Both the position numbers and the translations under genes were made by a program. The notes under the pieces were generated by a model, which was given only the letters and a program-made list of their open reading frames with translations, had not been told where the DNA came from and did no database searches. Of a stretch of DNA of 64,000 nucleotides, positions 6,337 to 40,107 are shown piece by piece (position 1 is the stretch's first letter; each line of letters begins with the position of its first letter). Origin of the DNA: Spirochaetia bacterium (GTDB lineage: Bacteria > Spirochaetota > Spirochaetia > SZUA-6 > Bin103); contig CBDAOI010000004.1 of NCBI GenBank assembly GCA_965198005.1, forward strand, positions 1,984,001 to 2,048,000, given 5' to 3'.

Positions 6337-8295
6337 CTAACGACCCATTGCTTCCTTCAGCTCACTATCAATCCAGAGGCGGGCGAGGATGGACATATAT
6401 TGCATATCTCCCATCGAGTATTCACCGTTAAAACCTTCGACCCACGGCTGGCTCACCTGAAACCTTGGTTCCAGAGGACCCCATATCTGATTGTGCTGCT
6501 TTATCACGGCCAAATCAAACTCTCTAGATGCCTGCATCTCCTCCTCAACGGTGGTAGCGGCCAAAAAGGCATCATAGGCGGCGGTCAGCTCAGGGGTCTC
6601 GACTCCGCCCACGTAGTCGCGCGTAGATGGATTGTCCGAGCGATAAGCGCGCGTGGACCAGGCAGGGCTCGAAATGGCCATGCCGCCACCGGTAGATGCC
6701 TGCATCTCCTCCTCAACGGTGGTAGCGGCCAAAAAGGCATCATAGGCGGCGGTCAGCTCAGGGGTCTCGACTCCGCCCACGTAGTCGCGCGTAGATGGAT
6801 TGTCCGAGCGATAAGCGCGCGTGGACCAGGCAGGGCTCGAAATGGCCATGCCGCCACCGGTCATCTCATAATCATGTGCTCCTCTCTTAGCGACCCAAGT
6901 CGCCGTGTCATATATATTAATCGTTACATCAACGCCAATATCAGCAAAGTAGCCGGCAGCTATTTCCACATAGCCCAAATCCGAGATGTCGCGGTGAGAA
7001 TAGTCGACCTTGAATCGAACGCCGTCCGCGCCCCGCGGATATCCAGCCTCGTCAAGGAGCTTCTCAGCACCTTCCGGGTCATACCTGTAGTATTGCTTGA
7101 GCTCTTCGGGCCACTCTTCAACTGGGGTGTAATACCCCTTGACGAAAGACACCGCAGGAGATTCCCACTTTGCTAAACCGGCATAGTAGGTATCGTTAAT
7201 CGTCTCGAGGTCCAGTGCCATCTGCAGTGCGTGGCGTACCCTGATGTCGTCAAAGGGCGCGTTGCGAATGTTCAGACCAATGGCAGCAAACGCCGCCTGG
7301 TGATAAAAGCTCGCCTCGAGTTCGGGGTTGGTCTTCTGGAGGCTCTTTACCACGTCTAGGGATTTTATTTCACCGACGCCGGCTTTAGCTGTTATATCAA
7401 TCTTACCCGAGCGTAGTGCCGATATACGTGTTGCTTCTTCTGCCATATAGAGGGCACTTACCTGGTCAATATAGGGCAGGCGGTTCTCAGGGTATTTTTC
7501 GTCGTAGCCCCAGTAGGCAGGATTCTTGGTCCAGGTGATAGAGACGTCTTCGACATAGTCAGTCAGCTCAAAGGGCCCGGTGCCGACCACGTTCTTCCAA
7601 TCCGTATAGTCGCCGTATTGCTCGATTACCTCGGGGGGTAATATCCAGTGCAAAGCTTCGTTGATGATAACCTCTAGCGCATAGACGGACGGCTCCGTCA
7701 GCTTAAAAACAACCGTATATTTGTCGGTGGCCTCTATCGATTCCCATGGCATATTGACAGCAACTCTAGGACTAAGGGGACGTTCGGTGAAGTCACCCAG
7801 AACGGTATTACGCTGCCAGGTATATACGACATCATCGGCAGTTAGCTCCCGACCGTTCATCGGTGCCTTGTTATGCCAGTAAACCCCCTGGCGGATGTGG
7901 AAGATGTAAGTCAGTGGGTCGGGCGTTTCCCAGCTTTCCGCCAGAGACCCTGTGAAGATAAACGTAGGGACATAGGGGTTTCTAAAGTCAAATTCTTTCC
8001 TATCTAGTCCCCAGTCCCCGAGGGCGAGAGTCTCATTAACACTGGCTATGAGGAAGCCCGCATAGCCGCCAGTAACAAAGGGGTCAGTAGTAGAGTAATC
8101 TAATCTATAGGGAAAGGTTAATGTCCCGCCATACTCTGGTGCCACCACGACCTTGCCGGTGGTCGGGTCGGTCACATACTTCTTGTCAGCCGCGGCTGCC
8201 GGTGCCTCTTCTGCGCCAGCGGCCCACAGGCCGGTTGCGGGCAAAACGAGGACCAACGCAATCGCGAAGGACCTTGCAAAAAATATCTTCATCAT
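6337..8295 (-). CDS. ABC substrate-binding protein family 5, with 56-aa internal duplication
   Basis: Signal peptide; LAESWE, VGTGPF and LLDEAGY motifs; 168-bp perfect repeat 6525-6860. Confidence 0.93.
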   Translation of the reverse strand: MMKIFFARSFAIALVLVLPATGLWAAGAEEAPAAAADKKYVTDPTTGKVVVAPEYGGTLTFPYRLDYSTTDPFVTGGYAGFLIASVNETLALGDWGLDRKEFDFRNPYVPTFIFTGSLAESWETPDPLTYIFHIRQGVYWHNKAPMNGRELTADDVVYTWQRNTVLGDFTERPLSPRVAVNMPWESIEATDKYTVVFKLTEPSVYALEVIINEALHWILPPEVIEQYGDYTDWKNVVGTGPFELTDYVEDVSITWTKNPAYWGYDEKYPENRLPYIDQVSALYMAEEATRISALRSGKIDITAKAGVGEIKSLDVVKSLQKTNPELEASFYHQAAFAAIGLNIRNAPFDDIRVRHALQMALDLETINDTYYAGLAKWESPAVSFVKGYYTPVEEWPEELKQYYRYDPEGAEKLLDEAGYPRGADGVRFKVDYSHRDISDLGYVEIAAGYFADIGVDVTINIYDTATWVAKRGAHDYEMTGGGMAISSPAWSTRAYRSDNPSTRDYVGGVETPELTAAYDAFLAATTVEEEMQASTGGGMAISSPAWSTRAYRSDNPSTRDYVGGVETPELTAAYDAFLAATTVEEEMQASREFDLAVIKQHNQIWGPLEPRFQVSQPWVEGFNGEYSMGDMQYMSILARLWIDSELKEAMGR

Positions 8296-8505: not shown

Positions 8506-8834
8506 GCTAGATCTACGTCGGGATCTGCGCTACAACGCCACGCGTGGCGGTGGTCTGAGCAGCAGTGAGTCTGAATGGCCGGCAACGCCGGCGGTGGGTT
8601 TTGCGGGCAGTCAGTCGCGGGCAGCGATCCGGGACGGCTGCGGTCGACGGGAAGGGCGCGGGCGGTCCGCATGCCGGTTCGGCGATGGACCGAGCCGGCG
8701 CCACGGATAGCTACGGCGGTGGTGAAGGCGACGGCGTGCGCGGGGTCGCGTAGGGCGCGATCAGCCGGAGCGGTTAGTTGTTTCTCGGTCTCGGTTTGAA
8801 AAGTTGGGGGAGGGGGATGCACTGGCTGCGTCAC

Positions 8835-9625
8835 AACTAACCGGTCACTGCGCTGCCTGTCATCGTGACCCTTCATGACCATCCGTCGAACCCCAGGTGA
8901 GGCACGCTAGCATAGGCGCGGCGCGCCGTCAACGACTCGTGGGGGTCACCGGGGTGAGCGAAGGTCACCGGCAACCCGTCACTGCGCTGACTGTCACCAT
9001 GGCGCTTCATCTCCGATCCGTCCGACCCCAGGCGAGGCAAGCTTGCTATGGACGCGACCACCCGGTCAACCACTCGGAGCTCACCAAACGTGAGCGCCAA
9101 CCGGTCACTGCGCTGACTGTCATCATGGCGCTTCATCGGCATCCGTCGACCCCAGGCCAGGCATGATAGCGTGGGCGCGGCGCACTGTCAACGTTTCGGA
9201 GCTCACCAAACGTGACCGCCAACCGGCCACTGCGCTGACTGTCATCATGGCGCTTCATCATCGATCCGTCGAACCCCACCCCAGGCGAGGCAAGCTTGCT
9301 ATGGACGCGACCACCCTGTCAACGACTCGGACGTCACCGACCGTGACCGCCAACCGGTCACTGCGCTGACTGTCATGATGGCGCTCCATCCGCATCTGAT
9401 CAACCCGAATCACCATCTTCCGCGGGCGACTCAGAAAAGTCAACGGCGATTCTGGCCTCGTGCACCTTGCCACGCCCGGCTCTGCGATTCGGCTGAACTT
9501 GCGCGCCTCACCCCTAACCAGTCACTGCGCTGCCGCCATCCTGGCGCGTCGTCGTGGCGCATCATCTGCATTCGCCGAACCCCTAACGGTGCAGTCTCTC
9601 GCGAGCGCGGCCACCCTGTCAACAG
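8835..9625 (-). repeat. Tandem array of promoter-like units pointing to the SBP operon
   Basis: TTGAC(N) on - strand near 8932, 9069, 9191, 9322, 9443 and 9622, with shared gtcactgcgctgactgtcatcatggcgc block. Confidence 0.85.
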
Positions 9626-9649
9626 CGCCGCCCCCTGCGTGCGCGGCCG

Positions 9650-10693
9650 ACCGGCAGCCGGGGCGGTGTCACGCCCGATGCCCGGTGACCTCCACCCGTG
9701 GCGTCTCCCTGGCGCCACGGGTGGCATGTAGCTCCCAGACCGCGACAGGACGTCGGGGGCTGGGAGCGGTTTTGCTATTCCGGAGGCGCGCCCGGAACGC
9801 GGCCGACCAGGTGAACCAGCGCCAGGCTGTGTATGGGCGTGACGTGGCCGGTCAGCTCGAAGCGGCGCCTGGCATCGTAGTGTCTGTGCATCATCGGGCG
9901 CCGCAGACCGAGTCGGCGAAGTGCACAGGTAACTCATCACACGACTGACGCGTCGTCCGTTCCTGGGCCCCGTCCATGGGGCCCAACACAGGCGTTCCCG
10001 CGCCATGGAGGGCAAGCGTGCGGCTGTCCTGTGGACAGCTCGGGGCGCGTCCGGAGCAACGTGCACCATCATGCTCACCAGCGCCGAGTCATGGAACCCG
10101 CTGGCCGAACCGGTCAGTCTGAAAGCAGCGACTGGCATCGCAGGGTCTGTGCATCATCGTGGCGAAGGTCGGAGGCCACGCCACACGAGCCGTGAACCCG
10201 CTCCCCACCGACCGTCGGCAGGCCGCTCGGGGAACAACACCACTGACCTCGGGGTGAGTCCGGCGGGGAAGCCGGCACCAGGTACCTCACCACACGACTG
10301 ACGCGTCGTCCGTTCGTGGGCAGACACGGTCGGTCGCGAACAAGGGGCCTTCGCGCTCCCTCTGAATCGGCCAATGGTAGCGCTGCCACCTCCCATGTGC
10401 CTCCGCCCGCGGACTGCGTCGCTGCCGGCCGATGCCCCATGGGCTACGACAAGGTGCGCCGCCGCTTCATCGGCCGCGGCAGAGTTCGTAATCGGTGACC
10501 TCCACCCGTGGCGCCCTCCCTGGCGCCACGGGTGGCATACGGCCCACAGACCACGACACGAGGTCGGGGGCTGTGGGCTGCTTCGAACTCCGGAGGCGGG
10601 TCCGGAAGGCTGCTCAACAGGGCAGCCATCGCCGGGCTCCGCATGGGTGCTGCGGCGCCGGTCAACTCGAAGCGGATGCTCCGATCTGGACCC
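9650..10693 (-). repeat. Mosaic SLOG-flanking repeat: two hairpins, two core palindromes, degenerate SLOG fragment and 39-aa ORF 9775-9894
   Basis: Reverse-complement homology to 1008-1432 and 3060-3365; VVLFPERPADGRWGAGSRL remnant near 10180-10245. Confidence 0.85.
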
Positions 10694-11346: not shown

Positions 11347-12327
11347 TCAAGTATTTTCTGTGCGCGATGGCCGCTCTCCGTTTCCTCCACTGGAGTTGCG
11401 TTCTCGCGGATGGTAGAGGCTGTGCACACGCTTCAGATCGCCGATCTCGACACGGAGGTACTTCTGGGTGGTCTTCAGCGAGGCGTGGCCGAGCAGCTTG
11501 GCGATGTACATGACGTTGGCCTCGTTGCGAAGCATGTGCGTGGCGACCGAGTGGCGAAAGGTGTAGCAGGTCAGGTCTTTCTTCAGCCCCACCTCGGCGG
11601 CGATCTTCCACATCACCGAGCGGTTAATGGTGCTCGCGTTGAAGGGGTTGCCCCAACCCGATAGGAACAACAGGCCCGGATCGTCGGCGCGTCCGCGCAG
11701 GAAGTACTTGCGACCCTTGCGCAGATACTCGGCGATGTAATGGCAGGCGTACTGACCGATGGGGACCACACGCGACTTGCCGCCCTTGCCCTTCATGATG
11801 GTGACCGTCTGTTCCTTGAGATCGAGATCTGCAACTCTGAGCTGGCAGAGCTCTGTGGTGCGGATGCCGCAGGCGTACAGCAGCTCGACGATGGCGCGGT
11901 TGCGCAGCCCCTCGGGACCGATCGGCTTGATCTGCTCGAGCAGACCTGAGACCTCATCCTCCGACAACACATTCCGAATCAGCTTCTGCTCCTCCTTGGG
12001 GAACTCCAGCACGCTGGTGGGGTCCCGGAGGATGAAGTCGCCGCGCAGTAGATAATGGAAGAACTTGCGCACCGACCGCAGGATCAGGTTCTGCGTGGCA
12101 TGCGTCAGCGCCCCGATGCGCGGATCCTCATGCTCGGCCAGATGCCGTTGATAGTCGAGGATCGTGTCCTTGGTGACCTGCTCGACCGTGTCGATGCGAG
12201 GGTAGCGCTGCTCCAGGAATGCCAGGAAGCGCTTGGTGTTAGCCCCGTAGGTCTCGAGGGTGCGGGCGGCGAAGTGATGGGCGCGCAGGTAGTCGCGAAA
12301 ACCGTCCAGGTGGCGCTGGAACTTCAT
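11347..12327 (-). CDS. XerC/XerD-type tyrosine recombinase
   Basis: SAM-like N-terminus; LYACGIR, GKGGKSR, YTFRHS (HxxR His replaced by Tyr), LLGH and TTQKY. Confidence 0.92.
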   Translation of the reverse strand: MKFQRHLDGFRDYLRAHHFAARTLETYGANTKRFLAFLEQRYPRIDTVEQVTKDTILDYQRHLAEHEDPRIGALTHATQNLILRSVRKFFHYLLRGDFILRDPTSVLEFPKEEQKLIRNVLSEDEVSGLLEQIKPIGPEGLRNRAIVELLYACGIRTTELCQLRVADLDLKEQTVTIMKGKGGKSRVVPIGQYACHYIAEYLRKGRKYFLRGRADDPGLLFLSGWGNPFNASTINRSVMWKIAAEVGLKKDLTCYTFRHSVATHMLRNEANVMYIAKLLGHASLKTTQKYLRVEIGDLKRVHSLYHPRERNSSGGNGERPSRTENT

Positions 12328-12493: not shown

Positions 12494-14672
12494 TCAGGTC
12501 GCCGCGCCCGCAGCGGCAGGTTGGGCCTTGATCCTGGCAGTCAGATCCTCGGGGCTGAGGATCGTGGTGAGGAAATCGAGGTCGCTGTAGTGTGCCGACA
12601 GCCGGTACTGATTGGCAAGACCACTGCGCGCCTTGATGAGCTGGATGTACTCGTAGTCGGCGAGGGTGCGGAAGTTGTTGCGGACCTGGGCGAACGACCA
12701 CGAGGTATAGGCTACGGATCTGGCTGCGCTGAAAGACCACCTGCTCGGCAACGACGCCCTCCGCATCGGCTTTGTCGGTGACGTACTTCTTGATGAGCTC
12801 CAGCAGCTCTCTGGCCGGCCGTGGCAGATCATCGAGGGTGTTGTCCAGCACGCCGTCGGAGAGCAGCTCGTGAGCGAGCCGGTAGTCGGCGACGGTGCAC
12901 TCGATGTATTCGAGGGTCTCGCCGCCGTCCAACGTCAGCTGCTTGCGCTTGCGCTGGTACTGATACAGGAAGCAGATGGCGTTGATGAGCCGCAGGAACT
13001 TCTCGTGGTCGCGCCGGGTCTTCAGTGTGGAGGCCGGGAAGGTCAACACCTCCGCATAGGGGTTGAAGACCAACACCGGCTCGAGCAACCGCTGCGCGAA
13101 GTGGTGGCGCTCGGTGATTCGATCCAGACTCCGTCGCTGGAGGAAGCCGTCGACGGTGTAGTTGGTGCGCTGCCGGTCGTGGATGAGCCGGGTCTGGTCC
13201 TCTGACTCGTCGATGCCCACGACGAAGCTGCGGCTGAGGTTGTCGGGGTTCACGTCGCCTTTGGTGGTGGTCTCGGCCAGCGAGATCGGCCCGTTCACGG
13301 TGATGGTCTCGGTCTTCACCTGGCCGGTGACCGGGTCCTTCATCGGCACCGCCTTGGTGATGGAGCGCCGCGAGATGAGCTCGCGCAGCGGGTAGTCGGA
13401 GCCCTCGCTGCCGTGCTTCTCGCCGATGACGATGAAGCAGTGCTTGAGGTCGTCCTTGCCGTAGTAGTAGAGCGCCTGCGCCGACAAGTCGCTGACGCTC
13501 TCCACATCCTCGGGCGGACACAGCTGCTCGGTCACCTCCACCAGCATGCTCTTGCCGGCGCTGCTGCGCGAGATGATGATCGCATGCAGCGGGTTGTGCA
13601 TCAGGCGCGAGGTCATCACCAGGTAGAGCAGGAGCTTGTTCTTGCGCTCCCGGACGTAGCCAAGCTCGGTGTAGTCGCGGTCGATCTGGTCGACCAGGTC
13701 GGAGCCCTTCAGCAACTCCATCCCGATCTGCCGTTGATGGTCGGTCAGCGCGCGGTGCTTCTCGATCACGTCGATGATCTGGGTCAGGTCGCTCTCGATC
13801 TGCGCTTGGTCGCTCAAGCCGAAGCGGTCCATCAGCTGATAGGTGAAGTTCTGTCGGTCGCGGTTGCGGTACAGGTCGATGGAATCCACGAATGCGCTCT
13901 GGTCGAGCTGGGCCTTGATGTTGGCCTTCATGCGGGTGGTGTGCTCAGCGAAGCTGCCGATGACCCGGTAGGTCACCTGTGGGAACCGAAACAGGAAGCC
14001 GCCCTCGATCTCGGTCACCGCATCTGAGATGGACGCCTCACCACCGTCGCGGTCCAGGAGTCGCTGGAGTGAGGCGCGCACCTCAGAGCTGGGCAAACCG
14101 TCGAGCTCGATGGGCACGCGACGCGCCGAGACCCCGGCGCGCGTGAGATCGGCGAACAAACGCGCGCGTCCCTCGAAGGTGAAGGTGACAGCGCGGATGC
14201 CCTGGTCCTGTGCGAACTTCAGGTACTTGGCGTCGCTGCCGAACGGAAACGTCGTATGCGGAAAGTCATGCTGGATGAGCGTGAGCGCGTCGAGGGGGCT
14301 CTCGACGAAGGGGGCGTTGAAGATGCCATCCTCGCCAATCATGACCAGGGGCCGCTTGGCGCGCGGGCTCAGTTTGTATCCGACGACGTTGACGACTGTC
14401 CCTGCCTCATCGAGGACCGGAATCGTCACGCAGCCCTGCAGCATGACGCGCCCGTTCTTGATGGCGCCGCAACGCTCGAGCTCTATGCGCAGCTCCTGGT
14501 CGCGCGCCAGATGCTCGGCGACCTGGTCGGCGCAGTAGCCGAGCCGGAAGCTCTCGAATACGAACGACTCAGTGATACCGGCTCGTGCGAGCGCGGCACG
14601 TGGGCGGGGATCCGAGGCCAGCGGTTCCGTGCAGAGGCCGGTCAGCTGTTCGAGTGCGTTGGCTTGATTCAT
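12494..14672 (-). CDS. DNA primase-like/P-loop helicase-like protein of an integrative element; frameshift near 12720
   Basis: FRLGYC, VTIPVLDEAGTVVNVVG and ESPLDAL (DnaG/Toprim-like); SRSSAGKS Walker A; likely true C-terminus (YTSWSFAQVRNN...) lies in ORF 12494-12832. Confidence 0.75.
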
Positions 14673-14772
14673 ATGGGCTCCCCATATACAGGACGTAGTA
14701 GTACCCTATATAGGGGGTGCGTGGCAACCCTTGCGGTACAATTTTTCGCACGATTGTGCGTATGCTGCAGCT
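14670..14772. promoter_or_regulatory. Divergent primase/HTH control region with palindromes
   Basis: ATATGGG-ct-CCCATAT and CCCTATATAGGG; AT-rich relative to flanks. Confidence 0.5.
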
Positions 14773-15141
14773 ATGGCTTCGCTCGGCACCCACCTCAAGG
14801 GCCTCCGAAAGCAGTCCGGGCTCTCCTACCGCCGGCTCGCCGATGCGGTCGGCATCTCCCACAACAACCTCGCCTCCTATGAGGCCGACCGCGTCATGCC
14901 CTCGTTCCAGAACGCGGTGAAGCTGTGCCAGTTCTTCAACGTCCCCCTCGAGTATCTGCTGGTCGGTCAGAAGGCCGACTTCCGCTATCACGACCTCAGG
15001 CTCGCCGAGCTGTTCCTCCAGGCCGATGCGCTGCCGGCCGAGTACCGCACCATCATCAAGGCGTACCTGCGCAGCGTGATGACGCACGCGGCCCAGAAGG
15101 AGCGCCTGATCGCTAGCGCCGCCGAGCCGGAGCTGCCGTAG
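14773..15141 (+). CDS. XRE-family HTH transcriptional regulator
   Basis: LGTHLKGLRKQSGLSYRRLADAVGISHNNLASYE..RVMPS...LCQFFNVPLEYLL. Confidence 0.9.
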   Translation: MASLGTHLKGLRKQSGLSYRRLADAVGISHNNLASYEADRVMPSFQNAVKLCQFFNVPLEYLLVGQKADFRYHDLRLAELFLQADALPAEYRTIIKAYLRSVMTHAAQKERLIASAAEPELP

Positions 15142-15241
15142 GGAGAGGGAACCGAGAGCGCAGATCGCGCGACGAAAGTGCTTGACTGCTAGGAACCGAG
15201 TGCGAAAGCGCCTGGCAACCAAGTACCAGGAGGTGCGATCG

Positions 15242-15838
15242 ATGGTGAGCTTTCAGGTTTCCGGTCAGCCGGCGCTGCGGTTCAAGGTGGCGGCGCGCTC
15301 GGTGCTGTTTGCCGGCAGCCGCCGCGGGCAGGTGGAGCAGCCGGTCTGCCGTGCGCTGGTCGAGCGGTTCCGCCGCCACGGGTTCGGGTTCTTCGTGGGC
15401 TGCGCGACCGGCGTCGATGCGGCGTTCCGCGCGGCGCTGGCCCACTCAGCGTGCGGCCCCGACGAGGTGTTCGTCGGCTGCGCGTTCGGCCAGCGCGCAC
15501 GGCGCTGCCGGGCCGAGGGGCTGTTCGCCTCGGCGGTGGTGCCCGAGGGCATCCCGCCCAACGCAGCGCTGGCGCGGCGCACCCTGTGGCTGGTCAAGCG
15601 CAGCTCGCTGGTGGTGCTGTTTCCCGAACGGCCTGCCGACCGGCAGTGGGGTCCGGGCTCGCGGCTTGCCTATCGCTCGGCGCTCTACCACCTCAAGCCG
15701 ACTTTCGTGGTGGCCTCACGGCCGCCTGTCGCTCCGGCGTTCTGTCGGGTGGCGGCCGCCGACCTGTTCGCCACGGTCGACGGCTACTGGGTGGTGCCGC
15801 ATACCTTCCGCGACGGGTTCTGCGACGACGAGTACTGA
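15242..15838 (+). CDS. DprA/Smf-like SLOG-superfamily protein, copy 3 (198 aa)
   Basis: Near-identical to copy 1, with patches matching copy 2. Confidence 0.65.
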   Translation: MVSFQVSGQPALRFKVAARSVLFAGSRRGQVEQPVCRALVERFRRHGFGFFVGCATGVDAAFRAALAHSACGPDEVFVGCAFGQRARRCRAEGLFASAVVPEGIPPNAALARRTLWLVKRSSLVVLFPERPADRQWGPGSRLAYRSALYHLKPTFVVASRPPVAPAFCRVAAADLFATVDGYWVVPHTFRDGFCDDEY

Positions 15839-16630
15839 GGGGTCGAGAGCGGAGCATCCGCTTCGAGTTGACCGGCAAGGCCACGCCCATGCACAGCCTG
15901 GCGCTCGCCGACCTGCTCGGTCGCCTTCCGGCCCCCCCTCCGGACCAGCGAAGCAACCCACAGCCCCCCGACCTCGTGTCGTGGTCTGTGGGCCGTATGC
16001 CACCCGTGGCGCCAGGGAGGGCGCCACGGGTGGAGGCCACCGATTACGAACTCTGCCGCGGCCGATGAAGCGGCGGCATGACGTGGCAGCGCTACCTCTC
16101 ACGTCACCACCATCCGCGCCGGCACCACCGGCCAACCGTCACTAGCGGTGCGCCCGCGGCATCAGCACAATGGCGATACCTGCGATCCGGCAAAAGGGCC
16201 CATTGGGCGATTCAGAATGCGTCCCAAGGCCCCTTGTTCGCGACCGACCGTGTCTGCCCACGAACGGACGACGCGTCAGTCGTGTGATGAGGCTTCGCCG
16301 AGTCGGTCTGCGGTGCCGCGGTGCCCTGGCGCTGCTTCGGGCTGACCGGCCACGTCACGCCCATAACGAGCGCGGCGCTTGTCGACCTGGTCGGCCGCGT
16401 TCCGGGCGCGCCTCCGGAGTAGGACGCGGATGTTACTACCGAATAGCGAAGGTATTGTAAACAGCCGGTGCAGCTCTGACTCGCGCAGGGGATCGAGAAT
16501 AGCCACCAGGCTCCCAGTCCACGACGTCCTGTCGCGGGCCGGGAGCTGCATGCCACCCGTGGCGCCATGGAGGGTGCCTCGGGTGGAGGTCACGCTGCAT
16601 CAGACGTGATACCGCGGGGGGTGCCGGTCG
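15839..16630 (+). repeat. Mosaic SLOG-flanking repeat
   Basis: Hairpin ~16000-16033; core palindrome 16257-16291; ~100 bp identical (inverted) to 22450-22552. Confidence 0.85.
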
Positions 16631-17745
16631 GCGCTGTTGACAGGGTGGCCGCGCTCGCAAGAGAGTGCACCGTTAGGGGTTCGGCGAATGCAGATGATGC
16701 GCCCCGACGACCGCCAGCGCGGTGGCCGGTGATGTTCGGTGACGTCCGAGTCGTTGACAGGGTGGTCGCCTCCATAGCAAGCTTGCCTCGCCTGGGGTGG
16801 GGTTCGACGGATCGATGATGACGCGCCATGACGACAGTCAGGACAGTGGCCGGTTGGTCGGTGACGTGCGAGTCGTTGACAGGATGGCCGCGTCCATAGC
16901 AACCTTGCCTCGCCTGAGGTGGGGTTCGACGGATCGATGATGACGCGCCATGACGACAGTCAGGACAGTGGCCGGTTGGTCGGTGACGTCCGAGTCGTTG
17001 ACAGGATGGCCGCGTCCATAGCAAGCTTGCCTCGCCTGAGGTGGGGTTCGACGGATCGATGATGAAGCGCCATGATGACGCGCCAGGATGGCGTAAGCGT
17101 AGTGACCGGTGGCCGGTGATGTTCGGTGACGTGCGAGTCGTTGACAGGCTGGTCGCGTCCATAGCAAGCTTGCCTCGCCTCGGCTTCGACGGATCGATGA
17201 TGACGCGCCATGATGACGCGCCAGGATGGCGTAAGCGCAGTGACCGGTTGGCGGTGACGTTCGGTGACCGCCGAGTGGTTGAAAGGGTCGTCGCGCCCAC
17301 GCTATCATGCCTGGCCTGGGGCGACGGATGCCGATGAAGCGCCATGATGACGTGCCAGGATGGCGTTGGCGCAGTGACGGGTTGCCGGTGACCTTCGCTC
17401 ACCCCGGTGACCCCCACGAGTCGTTGACGGCGCGCCGCGCCTATGCTAGCTTGCCTCGCTTGGGGTCCGACGGATGGTCATGAAGCGCCATGATGACGCG
17501 CCAGGATGGCGACAGCGCAGTGACCGGTTGCCGGTGACGCCGCGCGATGAGCGCGTTGGGTCGCTGTTGACACGGATTTGGGCGGCGGCGTACAATCTTC
17601 GGCGAATGGGCACCGACAGCATCCAGCCCAGTCGCCGGCCAGCGGTGACGAAGCGCGATGAGCGGGTTGGGTCGCGCTTGACACGGATTTGGGCCGGCCT
17701 CTACACTCGTCCGCGAATGGGCACCGACAGCATCCAGCCCAGCCG
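16630..17745 (+). repeat. Tandem array of 9 promoter-like units (period 111-145 bp)
   Basis: TTGAC(A/G) or TTGAAA at 16637, 16754, 16876, 16998, 17141, 17279, 17424, 17567 and 17678. Confidence 0.9.
17567..17596 (+). promoter_or_regulatory. Near-consensus sigma70 promoter
   Basis: TTGACA-N18-TACAAT; sister copy TTGACA-N18-TACACT at 17678. Confidence 0.7.
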
Positions 17746-17944
17746 CCGACTACCGACTACCGACTACCGACTACCTAACCGCGCGACAGCCAGCCGCTCG
17801 GCGCCGGTGCTGACCGCGGCACCATCGATCCGCGCGGCACACAGCCGTGCGTGTGGCGGCGGACCGCGTCGGCCGCAACCTCCACCAGTCTACATCAACC
17901 GGCGTTGCCGGGACTTCAGAAGAGAGGGGCACATCTGCGCCCGA

Positions 17945-18118
17945 CCGAGGGGGTGCAAAATGATACTCAAAGAGCCGCACGCGCGCGCGGCGTGAGCCGG
18001 GGTGAACCCGTTGAGTCACACGCCGCGCGCTCTTAGTGAATTTGACTCAGACTGGCCGTCTGCGTTGCGGGCATGAGAGTAGCCAGGGAGCGGCAAGTCG
18101 CTCCGCAATACTCTCGAA
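17945..18118 (+). promoter_or_regulatory. Conserved SBP leader: uORF MILKEPHARAA* (17960-17995) + two predicted pseudoknots
   Basis: Same peptide as 8454-8489 with synonymous changes (ctg/ctc, gaa/gag); same stems. Confidence 0.75.
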
Positions 18119-18139
18119 AATCAAGATCCGGAGTTACGC

Positions 18140-19939
18140 ATGAACTTTGTAAAAATTAGAATGACCTTCGCGTTTGCGTTGGTCCTCGTAATGACCGCAA
18201 CCGGCCTCTGGGCCGCTGGCGCAGAAGAGGCGCCGGCAGCCGCCGCCGACAAGAAGTACGTGACCGACCCCACCACCGGGAAGGTGGTGACCGCGCCAGA
18301 GTACGGCGGGATAATCACCTTTGCCAGGCGGGGTGACCCTCCGCATTGTGACTCCTTTTTCTCGCACGCGCCGGGAGTGGTCACTAGTGGCGTTGCCGAG
18401 AAGCTAGTCCACGGGAACTGGGGAATAGATAGGGACGAACGCGACTTTCGGACTGGCTTCAATCCTCCATCTGCCATGATAGGACAACTGGCTGAAAGCT
18501 GGGAACAACCCAACGACACAACTTATATCTTCAACATCCGCCAGGGCGTTCACTGGCATGATAAGCCCCCGATGAACGGTCGGGAGTTAACTGCCAAGGA
18601 TATAGAATATAACTATCAGCGTTATACTGGTCTAGGCAGCGGCTTCACCGAACCTAGCCCCTATATTGGGGATTTGCTCACCCGTGAGCCATGGGAATCG
18701 ATAACCGCTACCGACAAATGGACGGTTGTTTTTAAGCTGAAGAGGCCATCAGCCACTGCGCTGCATACTATCTTCGATAGCGCGTACAATTTTATATACC
18801 CCCCCGAGGTAATCGAGCAATACGGTGACTTAAAGGATTGTAAGAACCTGGTCGGCACCGGGCCCTTTATGCTAACTGAGTTGGTCGAGGGCAGCTCTGC
18901 GACCTGGATGAAGAATACTGACTACTGGGGCTACGACGAAAAGTACCCAGAGAACCGCCTGCCCTACGTTGACGAGTTAAGGGGCCTGATTATGCCAGAA
19001 GACCCAACACGTCTGGCGGCACTGCGCACGGGTAAGATTGATTACCTAGGTCACCTCGGCACCTCTCAAATATTTACTATCGACGAGGCAGAGAGCCTCC
19101 GGCTGACCAACCCTGAAATCGAACTGCATACGTTTGTCTTGCGGTCAGAAAACTCTTTTGTTGCTGGCATACGCCCCGACAACCCGCCCATTAACGACCT
19201 CAAGGTACGCATAGCAATGCAGAAGGCGTTGGACCTTGAGACAATTAACAATACCTACTTTAGGGGTTGGGCAGACTGGAAACCTATGGGGATTAATGGC
19301 ACTGGTTTAAAGGGGTATCACATCCCATTTGACGAGTGGCCCGAAGAGCTCAAGCGAGAATATACCTATGACCAGGAAGGGGCCGAAGCGCTCCTTGATG
19401 AGGCCGGGTATCCGCGCGGCGCCGACGGCATTAGATTCAAGACCGTCTTGAACCACCTCGATCGGTGGGATTTAGGCTTTAGAGAATTGGTTGCCTCCTA
19501 CTGGGCTGAGATTGGCGTTGATATTGAGATTAGGGAGATGGACGGAACCAAAATTGGCGCTATGATACGCGAACATACTTATGAAGGTATCGCCGATGGA
19601 ACTCCGGGCTACGAGGAGGGACCTCTGAAGCAGGTAGCCTGGTTTACCTCGGACTCATCATGGAACCCCCCTAATGTCAGTGACCCGGTTTATGACGCCA
19701 TGATTGAAGCCGCCGAAGCTGCTACCGGTGAGGAGCAGAAGAGGCTGATTACAGAGGCAGATATGTACGTTATAAAAAACCACTGGTTTATATGGGGTGG
19801 TAGAGCTCCACAGTTTAGCGCGAACCAGCCGTGGCTCATAGGTCATAACGGTGAAATGGCACTAGGAACCATGGACTTTATTGGCCCCTTCGCCCGCTTC
19901 TGGATTGATTCCGAGCTGAAGGAAGCAATGGGTCATTAG
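18140..19939 (+). CDS. ABC substrate-binding protein family 5
   Basis: Signal peptide; LAESWE, VGTGPF and LLDEAGY motifs. Confidence 0.93.
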   Translation: MNFVKIRMTFAFALVLVMTATGLWAAGAEEAPAAAADKKYVTDPTTGKVVTAPEYGGIITFARRGDPPHCDSFFSHAPGVVTSGVAEKLVHGNWGIDRDERDFRTGFNPPSAMIGQLAESWEQPNDTTYIFNIRQGVHWHDKPPMNGRELTAKDIEYNYQRYTGLGSGFTEPSPYIGDLLTREPWESITATDKWTVVFKLKRPSATALHTIFDSAYNFIYPPEVIEQYGDLKDCKNLVGTGPFMLTELVEGSSATWMKNTDYWGYDEKYPENRLPYVDELRGLIMPEDPTRLAALRTGKIDYLGHLGTSQIFTIDEAESLRLTNPEIELHTFVLRSENSFVAGIRPDNPPINDLKVRIAMQKALDLETINNTYFRGWADWKPMGINGTGLKGYHIPFDEWPEELKREYTYDQEGAEALLDEAGYPRGADGIRFKTVLNHLDRWDLGFRELVASYWAEIGVDIEIREMDGTKIGAMIREHTYEGIADGTPGYEEGPLKQVAWFTSDSSWNPPNVSDPVYDAMIEAAEAATGEEQKRLITEADMYVIKNHWFIWGGRAPQFSANQPWLIGHNGEMALGTMDFIGPFARFWIDSELKEAMGH

Positions 19940-19962
19940 AGGCTTCATCCCCTTTTTTTTGC

Positions 19963-20016
19963 GAGCTGGGGAGCCGCCTCCGAGCGCACTATTGAGCGGC
20001 TTCTCGGCTCCTTTTT
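19963..20016 (+). terminator. Probable intrinsic terminator after SBP
   Basis: gagctggggagccgc...gcggcttctcggctc-cttttt. Confidence 0.55.
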
Positions 20017-20074
20017 CCGCTTGTCTAGGAGAAGAAGGACCAAGGCGAATTGGGAGAACTTATAAGTGATACCT

Positions 20075-20412
20075 ATGGTCAAATAGAATCAATCGATCTA
20101 AAATCGGTGGTGCTGGATCCTCGCAATCCTTGAAGAGATCCTAGAGGAATCTCCCACGGCAGCAATAAAGGTGCTATGGGAATCGGAGGATCAATCTTGT
20201 ACTAGCGCTCTTTGGTCATGTACTGTCGGAAGATGGGAAATTGATTGGAAAAGGGATGAAATGATGTACATAATCGAGGGTGAATCGGAACTCGCAGATC
20301 AGTTCGGACACTCTCAAGCATTTGCGGCGGGTGATTTTTCATGTTAGCAGGAGGCTAAGACGATGTGGAATGTAGAACGGCCTCTTCTGAAGATCTTTTA
20401 ATTTTCGCCGAT
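20075..20412 (+). pseudogene. Cupin (DUF861-like) remnant between SBP and permease
   Basis: LWSCTVGRWEIDWKRDEMMYIIEGESEL..GDF then frame break. Confidence 0.5.
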
Positions 20413-20436
20413 GAATCCCGAAAGGTTCTGGCTGCC

Positions 20437-21402
20437 ATGAGAGCCTACGTCATCAGGCGGCTCTTACTACTCCTCCCCACACTGTTTATCATGTCCGTCC
20501 TGGTCTTTCTGTTGGTCCGCTTGATCCCCGGCGATGTAATAGACGCTATGGTGGGTGAAATTGTGTTCTATGGTAGAGGTGATACAGCAGTAGACCGTGA
20601 AGCTCTTGAGCGCATGCTTGGATTAGACGTACCTGGCTACGTGCAGTATGGACGTTGGATAGGAGATATTATTCTGCATGGCACCCTTGGCGACTCACTG
20701 ATTGGCGGTTGGAGAGTGGAGGAGAGGATACTAGGTAGACTGCCGGTAACTATTGAGCTTGGCCTCATGTCGATCGTCATTGGGCTGGTGATAGCACTGC
20801 CGGTCGGCATCTACTCGGCGATTCGCCAGGATACGGCCCCCGATTTCCTGGGGCGCTCCGTCGCCATCATCGGCCTGGCAACGCCGAACTTCTGGCTGGG
20901 GATCATGGTCATGCTATACCCGGCAGTGTGGTGGGGCTGGTCGCCACCGATGGAACTGATTCGGTTCACGGAAGACCCGCTGGGCAGTCTCGGAGTGTTC
21001 ATCATCCCGAGCCTGATTCTGGGTACCTACCTGTCTGCAGCCACCATGCGGATAACGCGGACGATGATGCTAGAGGTGCTGCGGCAGGATTACATCCGGA
21101 CGGCCTGGTCGAAGGGTCTCAAGGAGAGGGTGGTTGTGGTACGGCACGCTGTCAAGAATGCCCTCATCCCGATCGTTACCCTGGTGGGCCTGCAGTTTCC
21201 TATCCTGGTGGGTGGCTCGGTCATCATGGAGAACATATTCAACCTACCGGGGGTGGGTCGTCTCATGGTGGCCGCGCTCACCGACAGAGACTACCCGGTG
21301 GTCTCCGGAGTAAACCTGTTCTTCGGCACGGCGGTCGTGGGGGCCAATCTCATGATCGATCTGGTTTACGGCTACCTGGATCCGCGGGTCCGTTACCAAT
21401 AG
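20437..21402 (+). CDS. ABC transporter permease, DppB/OppB type
   Basis: MRAYVIRRLL; QDYIRTAWSKGL; LDPRVRY. Confidence 0.93.
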   Translation: MRAYVIRRLLLLLPTLFIMSVLVFLLVRLIPGDVIDAMVGEIVFYGRGDTAVDREALERMLGLDVPGYVQYGRWIGDIILHGTLGDSLIGGWRVEERILGRLPVTIELGLMSIVIGLVIALPVGIYSAIRQDTAPDFLGRSVAIIGLATPNFWLGIMVMLYPAVWWGWSPPMELIRFTEDPLGSLGVFIIPSLILGTYLSAATMRITRTMMLEVLRQDYIRTAWSKGLKERVVVVRHAVKNALIPIVTLVGLQFPILVGGSVIMENIFNLPGVGRLMVAALTDRDYPVVSGVNLFFGTAVVGANLMIDLVYGYLDPRVRYQ

Positions 21403-21413
21403 CACGCGCGGGA

Positions 21414-22289
21414 ATGGCTGCTTTCCTTGTCAGGCTGTGGCGAGAGAAATCACTCGGTGCTATCAGCGGGATCATCATCCTGATATTGATTCTCGTGGCT
21501 ATCTTTGCCGATGCTGTGGCCCCGTATGAGTATCTCGAGATACACTTGGCAGACCGGCTGACCGGCTCATCAGCCGCGTATCCGCTGGGTACCGACCACT
21601 TGGGACGAGACCTGTTGAGCCGCATCATCTACGGGGCGCGGCTGTCGTTGATCGTCGGTCTGTCGGCGACTGCAGTGAATGTCGTGGTCGCCGTGCTGAT
21701 CGGCGGCACGTCAGGATTCTTCGGCGGACGACTCGATCTTGTCGTGCAGAGATTCGTCGATGGCTGGATGGCCATCCCGGGACTGCTGCTGTTGTTGACG
21801 ATCATGTCCATCGTAGGGAAGGGGATGCCACAGCTGATACTGGTCCTGGGGATATCAGGAGGCATCGGCGGCTCGAGATTGATCAGAGGCGCCGTGATAG
21901 ACATCAAGGAGAATGCCTATTTCCAGGCGGTCGAGGTGATTGGCGCCTCGAAGTGGCGGACATTCATCGGCCATGTCCTGCCCAACATCATGCCGGTCGT
22001 GATCATCGTCTTCAGCATCAACGTCGGCGGGGTGATCATCAGTGAGGCTTCGCTGAGCTTCCTCGGCTTCGGTCTGCCCCCCGACGTTCCCAGCTGGGGA
22101 GCGATGCTCAGCCGCGAAGGGCGTCAGTACATGCAGCAGGGGCCATGGCTGGCTCTCTGGCCCGGTCTCTGCCTGACGATTGTCGTCTACAGTCTGAACA
22201 TGTTCGGCGACGCGGTGCGTGACCTGCTTGACCCGCGGCTGAGGGGTGGCGGGGGACGCCTGGGAGCCGATGCCGCCAGGTCGGTCTAA
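21414..22289 (+). CDS. ABC transporter permease, DppC/OppC type
   Basis: LGTDHLGRDLLSRIIYGARLSL; GDAVRDLLDPR. Confidence 0.92.
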   Translation: MAAFLVRLWREKSLGAISGIIILILILVAIFADAVAPYEYLEIHLADRLTGSSAAYPLGTDHLGRDLLSRIIYGARLSLIVGLSATAVNVVVAVLIGGTSGFFGGRLDLVVQRFVDGWMAIPGLLLLLTIMSIVGKGMPQLILVLGISGGIGGSRLIRGAVIDIKENAYFQAVEVIGASKWRTFIGHVLPNIMPVVIIVFSINVGGVIISEASLSFLGFGLPPDVPSWGAMLSREGRQYMQQGPWLALWPGLCLTIVVYSLNMFGDAVRDLLDPRLRGGGGRLGADAARSV

Positions 22290-23436: not shown

Positions 23437-25020
23437 GTGGCCGACAGCCTGACCCTCACCAGAGAGAACCAGAAGCTGCGGTCCGAGAACCAGGAGCTAA
23501 CCGTCCAGACCAACGAGCTGACCATCGAGGTTAGACAGCTGGCCATTAAGCTGGAGGTCGTCAACGACGAGCTGGCCAAGATCAAGAGCCGATTCTTCGG
23601 CCGTGCCAGCGAGAAGCTGAGCGTCGAGGAACGGCAGCAGATGCGGCTGTTCGACGAGGCGGAACAGGCCGCCGCCGAGAATCAGGAGCAGCCAGCCCCG
23701 ACCGAGGCGGCCACCGAGGTGCCGACGCACACCCGCCGCAAGCCGGTACGTCGGCCACTGCCGGAGTCACTTCCTCGCGAAGAGGTGGTGGTGGACATCA
23801 GCGACCAGGACAAGCACTGCAAGTGCGGTCACCAGATGGTACGCATCGGCCAGGAGGTCTCCGAGCGCCTCGACGTGATCATGCCGAAGGTGAAGGTGAT
23901 TCGCACGGTGCGGCCCAAATACGCCTGCCATCACTGCGAAGGCTCCGGGGACGAAGATCGACCTGCGGTGCGCATCGCGCCGGTGCCCAAGACGCTGATC
24001 CCGAAGGGCATCGCCACAGCCGGGCTGCTGGCCTTCATCGTCACCGCCAAGTTCTGCGACGCGTTGCCGCTCTACCGGCAGCAGAGTCAGTTTGCCCGCA
24101 TCGATGTGGATCTGCCACGCAGCACCATGGCCGACTGGATGCTGACTACCGCTGTCGCGTGCGAGCCGGTGATGAAAGAGATGCAGCGCAAACTGCGTTC
24201 AGGCCCGGTGCTGCAGGTGGACGAGACCAGGATCCAGGTGATGAAAGAAGAGGACCGAGCCAACACCACCCAGAGTTACATGTGGGTGGCCCGCGGTGGT
24301 CCGCCCGGCGAGCCGGTGCTGATCTATCACTATGCCCCCAGTCGTGGCGCGCCGGTGGCCGAACAGATGATCGGCGACTACGAAGGGTTTGTGCAGACCG
24401 ACGGCTACGAGGCCTACGATCGCAGATGCGCAGGCGATGGCATCGCCCATGTGGGTTGCTGGGCGCACGGCCGGCGCGGGTTCACCGACGCCAAGGAAGC
24501 TGCCACCAAGACCGCCAAGAAGGCGGGCGCCGCCGAGCAGGCGCTGGCGTTCATCGCCAAGCTGTATGGGGTTGAGTCACAACGCGACAGCTATGCCAGC
24601 CTCGATGAGTTCAACCAGGCCAGGCGAGCCCAGGTGGAGCCGATCCTCGAGAAACTGCGGACCTGGCTCCATGCCAAGAGCGACCAGGTTCTGCCTGGTT
24701 CAACGCTCGGCAAGGCGGTCGCCTACATGCTCGGGCAGTGGCCCAAGCTGACCCGCTACCTGGACTCCCCCCACCTCACTCCCGACACCAACGCCGTCGA
24801 GCAAGCCATCCGACCGTTCGTGCTGGGTCGCAAGAACTGGCTGTTCTCCGGCAGCCCACGCGGCGCGGCCGCCAGCGCCACTCTCTACAGCCTCATCGAG
24901 ACCGCCAAGGCCAACCGCCTCGAGCCCTACCACTACCTACGCGAACTCTTCGAGAAGCTGCCGCTGGCCAAGACTCCCGCCGACTACCGAGCTCTCATCC
25001 CCAAACGACGGGTCTACTAA
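23437..25020 (+). CDS. tnpC: IS66 transposase TnpC
   Basis: Coiled coil, Zn ribbon, VDET, QTDGY, CWAHGRR, RKNWLFSGS. Confidence 0.95.
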   Translation: MADSLTLTRENQKLRSENQELTVQTNELTIEVRQLAIKLEVVNDELAKIKSRFFGRASEKLSVEERQQMRLFDEAEQAAAENQEQPAPTEAATEVPTHTRRKPVRRPLPESLPREEVVVDISDQDKHCKCGHQMVRIGQEVSERLDVIMPKVKVIRTVRPKYACHHCEGSGDEDRPAVRIAPVPKTLIPKGIATAGLLAFIVTAKFCDALPLYRQQSQFARIDVDLPRSTMADWMLTTAVACEPVMKEMQRKLRSGPVLQVDETRIQVMKEEDRANTTQSYMWVARGGPPGEPVLIYHYAPSRGAPVAEQMIGDYEGFVQTDGYEAYDRRCAGDGIAHVGCWAHGRRGFTDAKEAATKTAKKAGAAEQALAFIAKLYGVESQRDSYASLDEFNQARRAQVEPILEKLRTWLHAKSDQVLPGSTLGKAVAYMLGQWPKLTRYLDSPHLTPDTNAVEQAIRPFVLGRKNWLFSGSPRGAAASATLYSLIETAKANRLEPYHYLRELFEKLPLAKTPADYRALIPKRRVY

Positions 25021-25519
25021 CCGTTTTCCACCGCTCCTTGCCGCCCACACCGGCGGTGCGGTTCCCCGGACGCTTACGAAGCAGCGCCTGGCATCATGTT
25101 GTTGGCGCATCATCGGGCACCGCAGACCGAGTCGGGGAAGTGTACAGGTAACTCATCACACGACTGACGCGTCGTCCGTTCGTGGGCCCCGTCCATGGGG
25201 CCCACCATAGGCGTTCCCGCGCCATGGAGGGCGCGGGCGATTGCGCGCGTCCGGAGTCACCACCCATCACGCTCACCAGCGACGGGTCATGGAACCCGCT
25301 GACCGAACCGGTCAGTCTGAATGCGCATTCCGGTGAACCTTTCCAGTGAATCCGGTGGAACGTTACCACCGCCGACGCGTGAGGCGTCATCTCGATGCTG
25401 GTTAGAAGTGGTAAGTTTGGTCCTCCCCCGGAGGGTAGGTCAAGGTGTATTCGGGTGATTGTCAGAGCACTGCTCCCTCTTAAAAACAGGTGGCGGTAAA
25501 AGGGGGTGGGGGTCCGGGG

Positions 25520-26341
25520 GAGCGCAGCGAGGCTAGCTGCTGAACTTGCGGGTGTAAGTCCCGCCGGCGCAAATCCCAGTGTGGCGCCGTAGTTATATCC
25601 GGCAGTCGACAGGGGCGACTCTGACGGCTGAAAGCCCGGAAGTAAACGTACTCAGGGGAGGGCGTGAGCCCGACCGACCAATGGCCTAGGAGGAGGCTAA
25701 CAACCAGAAGGGCCGTAGCGAGAGCGAACGGACTAATCGCCGAAAACCTCCCCAGCGGGAAGTTGGTTGCTGGATCTCGGAGTGCCAAGGGTTTCCTCCT
25801 CCTACCCGATGGCCAGTGCTGCTGCGGAAGAAACTGGGAAGTGCACGCGGTAGGCTCCCGGCGGAAGTTGAAGGCGGCAATTCTGGATAGTTCAGCAGTG
25901 AAAGCCCGGAAGGTGTGCTGCTCAGGCAGGATGATCCTCGAATGCCAAGGACCGGACCTATAACCGCTGGATGGCGGGAAGTGGAACGGAGAGCAGCAGA
26001 CTGGCGGATGAGGCCACCAAGCGACGATGGCCGCGACAACATAACGCGGCTGGAGCGAGGGCCTCAGGGCTCAGGAGGAGCCAGTGGAAATGCACCGCCC
26101 GGACACTGAGCCGGGGAACGGTGGATACAGCCGTTGGCTCGAAGCGATGGTCAAACCGGGGACAGCGCCCACGTAGCCAAGGATCAGGCTGAGCGTGGTT
26201 GCTATCGTACCGGGAAGGGCCGCCGTGAGCTTGCGGGCACCTGAGCTTCGAGCCGTACTGTGGGAAAACCCGACGTACGGAATCTCAGGGGGGGCGCTGG
26301 AAACGTGGCCTACGGGCGCGCGCGCCAGCGCTCTACCCGAC
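25520..26341 (+). ncRNA. Group II intron lacking an intact intron-encoded protein
   Basis: Domain V GAGCCGTACTGTGGGAAAACCCGACGTACGGAATC; domain VI ending CTCTACCCGAC; tentative 5' end GAGCG; no RT ORF. Confidence 0.75.
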
Positions 26342-26529
26342 GGGGGCGCTTGATCCTGTGGACATTGTGGATAACTTCCCTCACCGGATTGTGCTCCCGC
26401 TTGTGCTCTGCCCTCGGAACCCGCAATTGCGACGTGCTCCCCATGCCCGCTACGCCATCTGCGGTCCGGTCGCCGCGACCCCGCCGCAGGCCGGCGCCGG
26501 CGTCCGACCATCCAGTGCCGAGTGCGGTC

Positions 26530-26820
26530 GTACCTCTGGACTGGAAGGAGAAGTCGAACTCCTCGACGGTGTTCAGGAACGGGAAGCGAGCCTGTCTGAC
26601 CGAGCGCTGGATGCGGGTCTGTTGGCGATGGGAGATCTCCTCGATGATCCGCACGCCGAGGAACGCCCGGCACGACCAGCCATGAATCTCCGCGCGATCG
26701 AGCAACTGCCGCCAGCGGCGGCGGGTGTTGGCCACCGGGTTGAGCCGGCGCAGCAACGGATCGAACTCCACGGTGGCCGGATCGTAGGGCGGCGAGTGCG
26801 AGGTGGCGGTGCTCATCGCC
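26530..26820 (-). pseudogene. IstB-like fragment
   Basis: IEEISHRQQTRIQRSVRQARFPFLNTVEEFDFSFQ. Confidence 0.7.
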
Positions 26821-27067
26821 AAGGCAGCTCCTGAGAAACTACCTGTTTCTGCCATGCCTGCACCGGCCCCGGGCCGGTGGGTAGCTCCTGAGATGGTGCG
26901 GATGCGCGCTCGACAGGCCCCGTGAGCGCCCGCTGCACGCGAATCAGGTAGGTCACGGAGAAAAAATCGTCCATAGCGGCCCTGTGCGGCGTTTTCTGAG
27001 GGGAGGTGGTGTTGCAACACCCCCTGGAAATGCCGGGACAACCGCCGATTCAGGAGAGGCCAGACTC

Positions 27068-40072: not shown

Positions 40073-40107
40073 GTAAAGGGAAACATTAACTAAGGAGGCA
40101 GAGAAGG

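Follow-up and report, generated by a model that had tools for sequence, protein, structure and literature searches.

Why should one bacterial operon be preceded by nine promoter-like units standing one behind the other? The question is posed by positions 16635-17748 of the window analysed here, a 64-kb stretch of DNA from a genome (G000) of an uncultured, sponge-associated Spirochaetia genus; all coordinates are in window numbering unless a contig is named. On the + strand of this region seven units of 109-129 bp lie head to tail and are followed by two units of 111 bp, and together they form the distal control region of an Opp/Dpp-type ABC-transporter operon, the first gene of which codes for a solute-binding protein (SBP) of family 5. 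The answer we favor, with a probability of about 0.55, is that the units are repeated modules, each a sigma-70-type promoter with the start of a leader, which unequal recombination has multiplied and which add start sites. From the array into the operon, the locus reads as follows.

16635-16743, + strand: unit 1, type F, first of the array; TTGACA at 16637-16642, 18 nt, GAGAGT (nhmmer, clustering, sequence).
16748-17259, + strand: units 2-5, type A, the amplified type; TTGACA starting at 16754, 16876, 16998 and 17141, 18-nt spacer, CAAGCT (CAACCT in unit 3).
17273-17392, + strand: unit 6, type C; TTGAAA at 17279, 18-nt spacer, TATCAT; 10 of 12 consensus positions.
17418-17538, + strand: unit 7, type B, the usual last unit; TTGACG at 17424, 17-nt spacer, TAGCTT.
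17532-17748, + strand: type H pair, the second module, 111 bp each; TTGACA-18-TACAAT at 17567-17596 (11 of 12 consensus positions) and TTGACA-18-TACACT at 17678-17707 (10 of 12) (Tandem Repeats Finder, promoter scan, clustering).
17746-17775, + strand: 7-nt microsatellite, CCGACTA x 4.3, separating the promoter stack from the proximal leader (Tandem Repeats Finder, comparison).
17776-18139, + strand: proximal leader (sequence).
18140-19939, + strand: SBP_bac_5 gene, the first gene served (Pfam PF00496, E 1.5e-58).
20365-22289, + strand: two ABC permease genes (BPD_transp_1 with BPD_transp_1_N; BPD_transp_1 with OppC_N).

An initial annotation of the sequence had drawn attention to tandem promoter-like hexamers, and all of these were recovered: nine in this array, six at 8830-9624 (-), three at 39769-40071 (+) and remnants at 57534-57840 (-), with the second hexamers TACAAT, TACACT, TATCAT, TAGCTT and CAAGCT each present 17-18 nt past the first. 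All nine units here combine TTGAC(A/G) or TTGAAA with a hexamer of the form nAnnnT after 17-18 nt. An nhmmer profile built on 79 near-full BLAST copies of one unit gives seven matches at 16635-17538 (+), and the trailing two 111-bp units form a second family. Tandem Repeats Finder reports three overlapping arrays on the + strand at 16693-17748 (16693-17079, period 122, 3.2 copies, 92% matches; 16980-17537, period 138, 4.0 copies, 80% matches; 17532-17748, period 111, 2.0 copies, 87% matches) and one on the opposite strand at 8967-9390 (period 122, 3.4 copies). Units were typed by clustering 44 nt of sequence from the first letter of each TTGA(C/A)N hexamer onward, which gives the order F A A A A C B H H for this array; units 4 and 5 hold an extra internal stretch of ~13 nt. 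The SBP gene begins 392 nt past the array, and the proximal leader contains an 11-codon upstream open reading frame (ORF; 17960-17995) that has a purine-rich stretch 5' of it and a counterpart in the genome of a sister species, G003.

Are the units built like promoters? Each consists of a -35 hexamer TTGAC(A/G), a GC-rich spacer of 17-18 nt, a -10 hexamer with A at its second and T at its sixth position, and a constant block of ~85 nt that ends in GTGAC direct repeats adjoining the next -35 hexamer; the units follow one another head to tail with nothing in between. The constant block described in the initial annotation agrees with the consensus of 108 full units. These 108 units, which were picked by the profile and not by the hexamer, were also used to score conservation in 122 windows of five columns. 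The two best conserved windows are GTTGA and TTGAC, with minor-letter fractions of 0.004 and 0.011 against a mean of 0.167 over all columns. Exact TTGAC is found in 102 of the 108 units, nAnnnT 16-18 nt further on in 104, and both in 98. The initial annotation had let its promoter proposal hang in part on whether the two hexamers are better conserved than the rest of the unit: the -35 hexamer supplies the best-kept windows, and the A and T of the -10 hexamer persist in nearly every unit. Only three of the nine units here reach four of six matches to TATAAT. By eye, the consensus sequences of types A, B, C, F, G, H, I, J and K show the same hexamer geometry around unrelated spacers. A strict consensus scan of 16000-18300 found 3 promoter-like sites, compared with 0.3 +/- 0.5 in 50 shuffles. 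A table of conservation within types was set aside, since the types are defined on the hexamer and spacer letters that it would score.

Promoter-like hexamers followed by ~85 conserved nucleotides with several ATG triplets could also mark an array of small-RNA or small-peptide genes, each with its own promoter, as the initial annotation had suggested. We consider this highly improbable. The consensus fold of 40 units from five genomes reaches -5.08 kcal/mol with 1 of 11 pairs compensatory, single-unit folds have no common shape, and Rfam returns nothing in 16500-18200 at E up to 1. No terminator-like site was found on the + strand of 16000-18300 and no conserved hairpin among the units, and a reading frame is not kept, the units differing by 13, 5 and 1 columns in the alignment. 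A terminator hairpin at the 3' end of the unit was tried as a candidate and rejected: some units can pair GTCAC with GTGAC, with one compensatory variant seen by eye, and the direct-repeat form dominates the 108 units. The period of 111-145 nt, the lack of unique spacers and an SBP gene downstream likewise separate the array from CRISPR and from type III toxin-antitoxin RNA arrays.

What do the units serve? A genome-wide nhmmer search returned 147 unit matches at 53 places, 33 of which have at least two. Downstream proteins were collected with a profile of their own, which yielded 162 SBP-like ORFs of at least 350 amino acids in the 4.9-Mb genome (the Pfam model gives 133 matches over its cut-off among 226 first-look candidates). 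Forty-three of the 53 unit places lie within 2 kb 5' of such an ORF on the same strand, and the median distance from the last unit to the start of the longest ORF is 532 nt. Counted from the genes, full units within 2 kb upstream number none at 117 of the 162, one at 23 and two to seven at 22 (two units at four genes, three at eight, four at four, five at four and seven at two); one of the two seven-unit arrays is the array described here and the other lies just beyond the end of the window. On these counts one unit is the basic state, from which the arrays arose by amplification. Among the ten places not assigned to an SBP gene, three have one farther on behind inserted DNA (at 57534-57840, a DDE transposase ORF), two stand beside mobile genes (one beside a reverse transcriptase, the other beside a reverse transcriptase and an IS110 transposase), one has become joined to an epimerase operon and four precede other or unknown genes.

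This distribution bears on a different proposal, in which the units are recombination scars or a mobile-element promoter cassette serving cargo genes, with Xer, helix-turn-helix and SLOG proteins as its setting. A Xer-like integrase gene (11347-12327) does lie between two divergent arrays, a paralog of it is found 1.5 kb from another array, and insertion sequences and a group II intron reverse transcriptase occur beside some arrays. Against this, the genes served at 43 of the 53 places are not cargo but chromosomal SBP_bac_5 ABC-transporter operons, the units adjoin without gaps, spacers or inverted-repeat sites, and the mobile genes seem to have entered later, separating arrays from their operons. 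Eleven of the 34 tyrosine-recombinase-like ORFs lie within 10 kb of an array, where such zones make up about one fifth of the genome by our own arithmetic. The helix-turn-helix and SLOG proteins were not confirmed, the other ORFs between the divergent arrays having no Pfam match at E up to 0.1. We give scars or a mobile cassette next to no weight.

How are the arrays composed? Clustering, which the initial annotation had proposed, sorts the ~35 nt past TTGAC into discrete types; rarer types exist beside the five main ones.

Type A: 49 copies; second hexamer CAAGCT; mid-array, amplified.
Type B: 32 copies; second hexamer TAGCGT or TAGCTT; usually last.
Type C: 13 copies; second hexamer TATCAT; mid-array.
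Type F: 8 copies; second hexamer GAGAGT; first.
Type H: 7 copies; second hexamer TACAAT or TACACT; after B at some loci.

The general order runs from F (or Q, J, L-M) through repeated A, sometimes C, and B to, at some loci, H H, and then the leader. Type F leads all eight arrays that contain it, type B closes 14 of the 22 arrays with at least three typed units, and type A can itself be the unit nearest to the operon, as it is at several loci (among them arrays 6, 10 and 26). Unit number is variable and unit order is mostly fixed; the types and varying numbers that the initial annotation described hold up in this respect, whereas the varying order does not. A well-conserved module of ~350 nt stands directly 5' of the first type F unit in all eight F-type arrays (here at 16256-16632, mirrored at 9625-10117), and fragments of it turn up at about 25-40 genomic places. 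No ORF tried in this module matched a Pfam family; the module may be what is left of a gene, or else an additional control element.

Does unit number change over short evolutionary distances? Unit DNA is present in five of ten other genomes of the genus and in none of 20 genomes outside it (eight of a sister genus and 12 of other families of the order), and the unit family thus appears confined, among the genomes searched, to one Spirochaetia genus. A scan for the exact pattern across 185,579 species, each represented by one genome, gave 42 loci, of which the profile confirmed units in 18: 17 in three records labelled as Spirochaetia bacterium metagenome-assembled genomes (MAGs) and one in a 4.1-kb contig labelled as a Chloroflexota MAG. 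At 15 of these 18 an SBP-like frame follows on the same strand. The other 24 loci (Bradyrhizobium and others), which the profile did not confirm, were discarded as chance pattern matches. Arrays of three to five units recur in the genomes of three other species.

At the locus itself, the ortholog of the SBP in the sister species G003 has 97% amino-acid identity, and the DNA is 96.8% identical over 2059 nt from window position 17948 on; upstream of 17948 identity drops to 70-82%, and the orthologous array has three units where G000 has seven plus two. In three further gene pairs of 93-96% identity the counts are five units versus one full plus one partial, zero versus three full plus one partial, and zero versus two full plus one partial. 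These copy-number differences are differences between species. The place of the CCGACTA microsatellite is taken in G003 (locus L023, 6065-6130) by a different and longer 7-nt repeat.

The comparison with G003 also gave a separate observation on the flanks. Two G003 loci (L005, L024) were compared, and the upstream flank of one G003 array matches the flank of a different G000 array from the one to which its downstream gene corresponds; the G000 flanks involved are at 378-380 kb and 410 kb of contig C4 and at 11.5-12.6 kb of the window, and the integrase region of the window adjoins another SBP gene in G003. Because some array flanks match those of different arrays in this way, the arrays or the leaders behind them seem to be points of recombination between paralogous loci.

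Is the array transcribed? Contigs from three RNA libraries of three studies and from one DNA-type run (X15) were compared over 14000-22000. All three libraries have contigs on the array, with bin depths over 16670-17737 of 166-564, 40-180 and 13-69 (mean word depth), and also on the leader and the SBP gene. Over 14000-16669 the depths are 0-33, 0-2.7 and 0-1.4, compared with 36-344 in X15, which is a control for DNA carry-over only; the bins are too coarse, and contigs unfit, for placing a transcription start. Two contigs of run X13 cross internal promoters. The first, 17064-17178, has no differing letter and spans the -35 and -10 hexamers of unit 5, and the second, 17482-17631, has one differing letter and spans those of the first H unit. 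Contigs that span internal promoters imply that RNA begun farther upstream reads through them. Contig joints that skip about one unit (for example from 17079 to 17234) were considered as copy-number variation and rejected, their letters fitting paralogous units without the 13-nt insert.

These observations lead us to a model in which the repeated block would be the normal promoter and beginning of the leader in a very large family of paralogous operons. Slippage or unequal recombination between copies would have multiplied it head to tail, to seven copies here, joined by two near-consensus copies of the second module. Each copy would most likely be a live sigma-70-type promoter and, with no terminators between them, a transcript begun at an upstream copy would continue across the copies that follow and on through the proximal leader into the operon. 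In this way the stack would add start sites and produce long leaders nested within one another, and the output of the operon would change as copies are gained or lost. We infer that all copies fire, that more copies mean more output and that changes in copy number are selected; amplification of the mostly weak type A units would fit such additive use. An expandable promoter array tuning expression was among the suggestions of the initial annotation. The expandable array is favored by the conservation of the -35 hexamer, the near-constant nAnnnT, the differences in copy number and the RNA-library contigs, and the tuning itself is a prediction from sequence.

Several points weigh against this model. 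The strict scan passes three of the nine units only (the C unit and both H units), and the amplified type A, with CAAGCT at two of six consensus positions and an 18-nt spacer, fails it. The whole unit is well conserved, the next-ranked blocks including AGCGCAGTG and GATGA. The units are young paralogs, probably homogenised by recombination, which makes the conservation of the hexamers weaker proof of selection than the counts suggest. As many as 117 of the 162 sister SBP genes have no full unit at all. The RNA runs are kept as contigs, which show neither starts, strand nor level and whose depth cannot rank genes; RNA libraries can contain DNA, and paralogous arrays can contribute contigs at 95% likeness, such that part of the RNA signal may come from other loci. 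Finally, a leader of up to 1.5 kb would be costly and unusual.

Some of the same facts speak for the main rival, a neutral minisatellite in which one unit fires (the last B or H, or the first F) and the other copies are tolerated by-products of unequal recombination. The type that has been amplified is the one with the weakest second hexamer and most units fail the strict scan; units within a type are 80-95% alike, and the conservation of their hexamers may just reflect recent duplication and homogenisation; copy number, and even the presence of units, differs freely between sister species and many genes do without them. Tandem repeats are moreover described as common and unstable in bacteria in a source that discusses repeated promoters in general (PMC4907049, drawn on here in part). 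A repeat under no constraint is nevertheless hard to reconcile with a -35 block whose minor-letter fraction is so far below the column mean, or with an A and a T of the second hexamer that are kept in 104 of 108 units. Type A stands next to the operon at several loci, RNA-library contigs cover the upstream units too, and three- to five-unit arrays recur in three other species. We regard the neutral minisatellite as doubtful.

A different use of the array is suggested by the constant block. Two or three copies of GTGAC lie at the unit tail, mostly as direct repeats, and the consensus places them 10-16 bp apart, about one helical turn, just 5' of each -35 hexamer. The windows that rank next to the -35 hexamer in conservation, AGCGC, GCAGT and GATGA, are also in this block. 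The constant block, through the GTGAC repeats, AGCGCAGTG and GATGA, might accordingly bind a shared regulator or an RNA-binding factor, with reiteration multiplying sites and not starts; joint regulation of the entire operon family would be well served by such a common site. On the other hand, the ORFs adjoining the arrays match no Pfam family and no regulator was identified among them, and the units lack a conserved RNA fold. A CsrA-type GGA platform was rejected as unlikely, no CsrA gene being found in the 90% complete genome. A search for the FlaA family gave no match anywhere, controls included, and is uninformative. We judge it unlikely that the array is a binding or leader platform in place of a promoter stack. 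The two readings are compatible, and the GTGAC repeats could form an added layer on the promoters, as candidate binding sites of a shared regulator.

Are there precedents for such an array? Pneumococcal BOX elements and enterobacterial BIMEs are genome-wide, lineage-specific, modular intergenic repeats with a variable number of inner modules. They are built of stem-loop modules and not of promoter copies, and BIMEs lie mostly after or between genes, whereas the units described here have no conserved stem-loop, stand strictly upstream and are co-oriented with the genes. The closer likeness is to promoter variable-number tandem repeats (VNTRs), and the kind is already known from Mycobacterium tuberculosis, where copy-variable tandem promoter repeats upstream of dop, lpdA and cysG are proposed to alter promoter strength (PMC12817950; this and the two sources that follow are represented here by part of their text). 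In both cases promoter units lie head to tail directly 5' of the genes, and copy number differs at the same locus between close strains there and close relatives here. The present arrays differ in that one unit family precedes one paralogous operon family at 43 loci, 22 of them multi-unit; in that the units are 110-145 bp long, including a predicted transcribed leader of ~85 nt; and in that they are ordered mosaics (F, repeated A, C, B) whose variation is seen between species and is known from sequence.

Stacking of identical sigma-70 promoters head to tail has also been engineered: in clusters of the tac core promoter (MCPtacs), transcription became stepwise stronger up to five copies (PMC3293061). 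Those stacks are artificial, consist of short core promoters and were tested in Escherichia coli, whereas the arrays here are natural, with longer units and a mostly weak second hexamer. E. coli P1/P2 tandem promoters resemble the arrays in that several co-directional promoters feed one operon, and differ in usually being two unrelated promoters instead of up to nine repeated ones 111-145 bp apart. A model of E. coli tandem promoters predicts that, at start-site distances above 35 bp, interference is by polymerase on the downstream promoter (PMC8830795); with 111-145 bp between units, the present arrays would exceed that distance and lie beyond the range in which one polymerase occludes the next start. 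Our search of one literature library returned no account of these arrays and none of stacked promoters in front of transporter operons in spirochaetes of sponges. What is new is the scale, with a single unit family in front of 43 operons that belong to one family of paralogs and 22 of which have several units, the ordered mosaic of unit types, the leader start inside each unit, and the host, an uncultured sponge-associated Spirochaetia genus.

The window holds three other sets of units.

8830-9624, - strand: six-unit sister array, order F J A C A B, facing the SBP gene 6337-8295 (-) (nhmmer, Tandem Repeats Finder, clustering).
39769-40071, + strand: three-unit array, F A C (nhmmer, clustering).
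57534-57840, - strand: array remnant with two unit matches (nhmmer).

The second of these is informative about what a unit can do. Its third unit (TTGAAA-18-TATCAT) ends ~22 nt into the transcribed block and is fused to low-GC DNA that carries the ATG (40108) of a gene for an NAD-dependent epimerase and, as that gene's own Shine-Dalgarno sequence, AAGGAGG, the joint lying 36 nt 5' of that ATG. This is the arrangement expected if the unit acts as the promoter of the epimerase gene, and it would represent a natural promoter fusion. At the remnant, a DDE transposase ORF (56305-57477, -) sits between the units and the SBP gene 53577-55394 (-). Inserted DNA lies directly 3' of the last unit at three arrays (C1:204286-208785; window 56305-57477; C4:393837-398336), consisting respectively of an IS110-family transposase with a reverse transcriptase, a DDE_Tnp_1 transposase and a 460-amino-acid ORF without a Pfam match, and suggests that the junction of array and leader is an insertion hot spot. 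A 75-bp tandem repeat of ~2 copies, different from the array units, is found at 55973-56135, 5' of the SBP gene 53577-55394; repeats of period 75 also precede three more SBP-like genes elsewhere in the genome, a likeness of period only.

Next to the sister array, the SBP gene 6337-8295 (-) is followed by permease genes, with an ORF for a GIY-YIG nuclease domain (5637-6143, -) inserted between it and the first of them. Inside the same SBP gene is a perfect, 100% identical tandem duplication (6525-6861, period 168 bp x 2.0) whose length is in frame, and a second one, also 100% identical, is at 2300-2717 (period 208 bp x 2.0); these are either very recent duplications or assembly artefacts. The SBP genes have a mean GC content of 58% against 66% for the genome, and the SBP operon (18000-22000) and the epimerase-aldolase cluster (40000-42000) stand at 50-55% GC in the composition profile. 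A mobile-element cluster at 23437-29637 comprises ORFs for an IS66 transposase, an IS21-type IstB and a Mu-like transposase; within it a group II intron domain piece (RF02003, 25546-25723) is the only Rfam match of the whole window at gathering score.

What would promoter stacks mean for this bacterium? The genome gives an unusual share of its DNA to peptide-type uptake systems, which raises the question of how so many near-identical uptake operons get different levels; a promoter stack would be a simple, mutation-driven answer. As copy number differs between sister species, the array is probably a fast-evolving dial on transporter expression. Tentatively, and at low confidence, this could be extended to a genus-wide promoter-dosage system, in which the number of stacked modules would act as a heritable, fast-mutating rheostat for each of some 20-40 uptake operons separately, and the dispersed arrays would double as substrates for recombination, through which operons exchange control regions and flanks, as seen between G000 and G003. 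Should just one unit fire, the array is an ordinary minisatellite of local interest. If the promoter reading is true, it would be a natural counterpart of engineered tandem-promoter clusters and would extend promoter copy-number variation from a few loci of M. tuberculosis to a family-wide system in an uncultured symbiont. And if the dosage reading holds as well, a symbiont of sponges could shift the balance of its uptake systems and need no dedicated regulators to do so.

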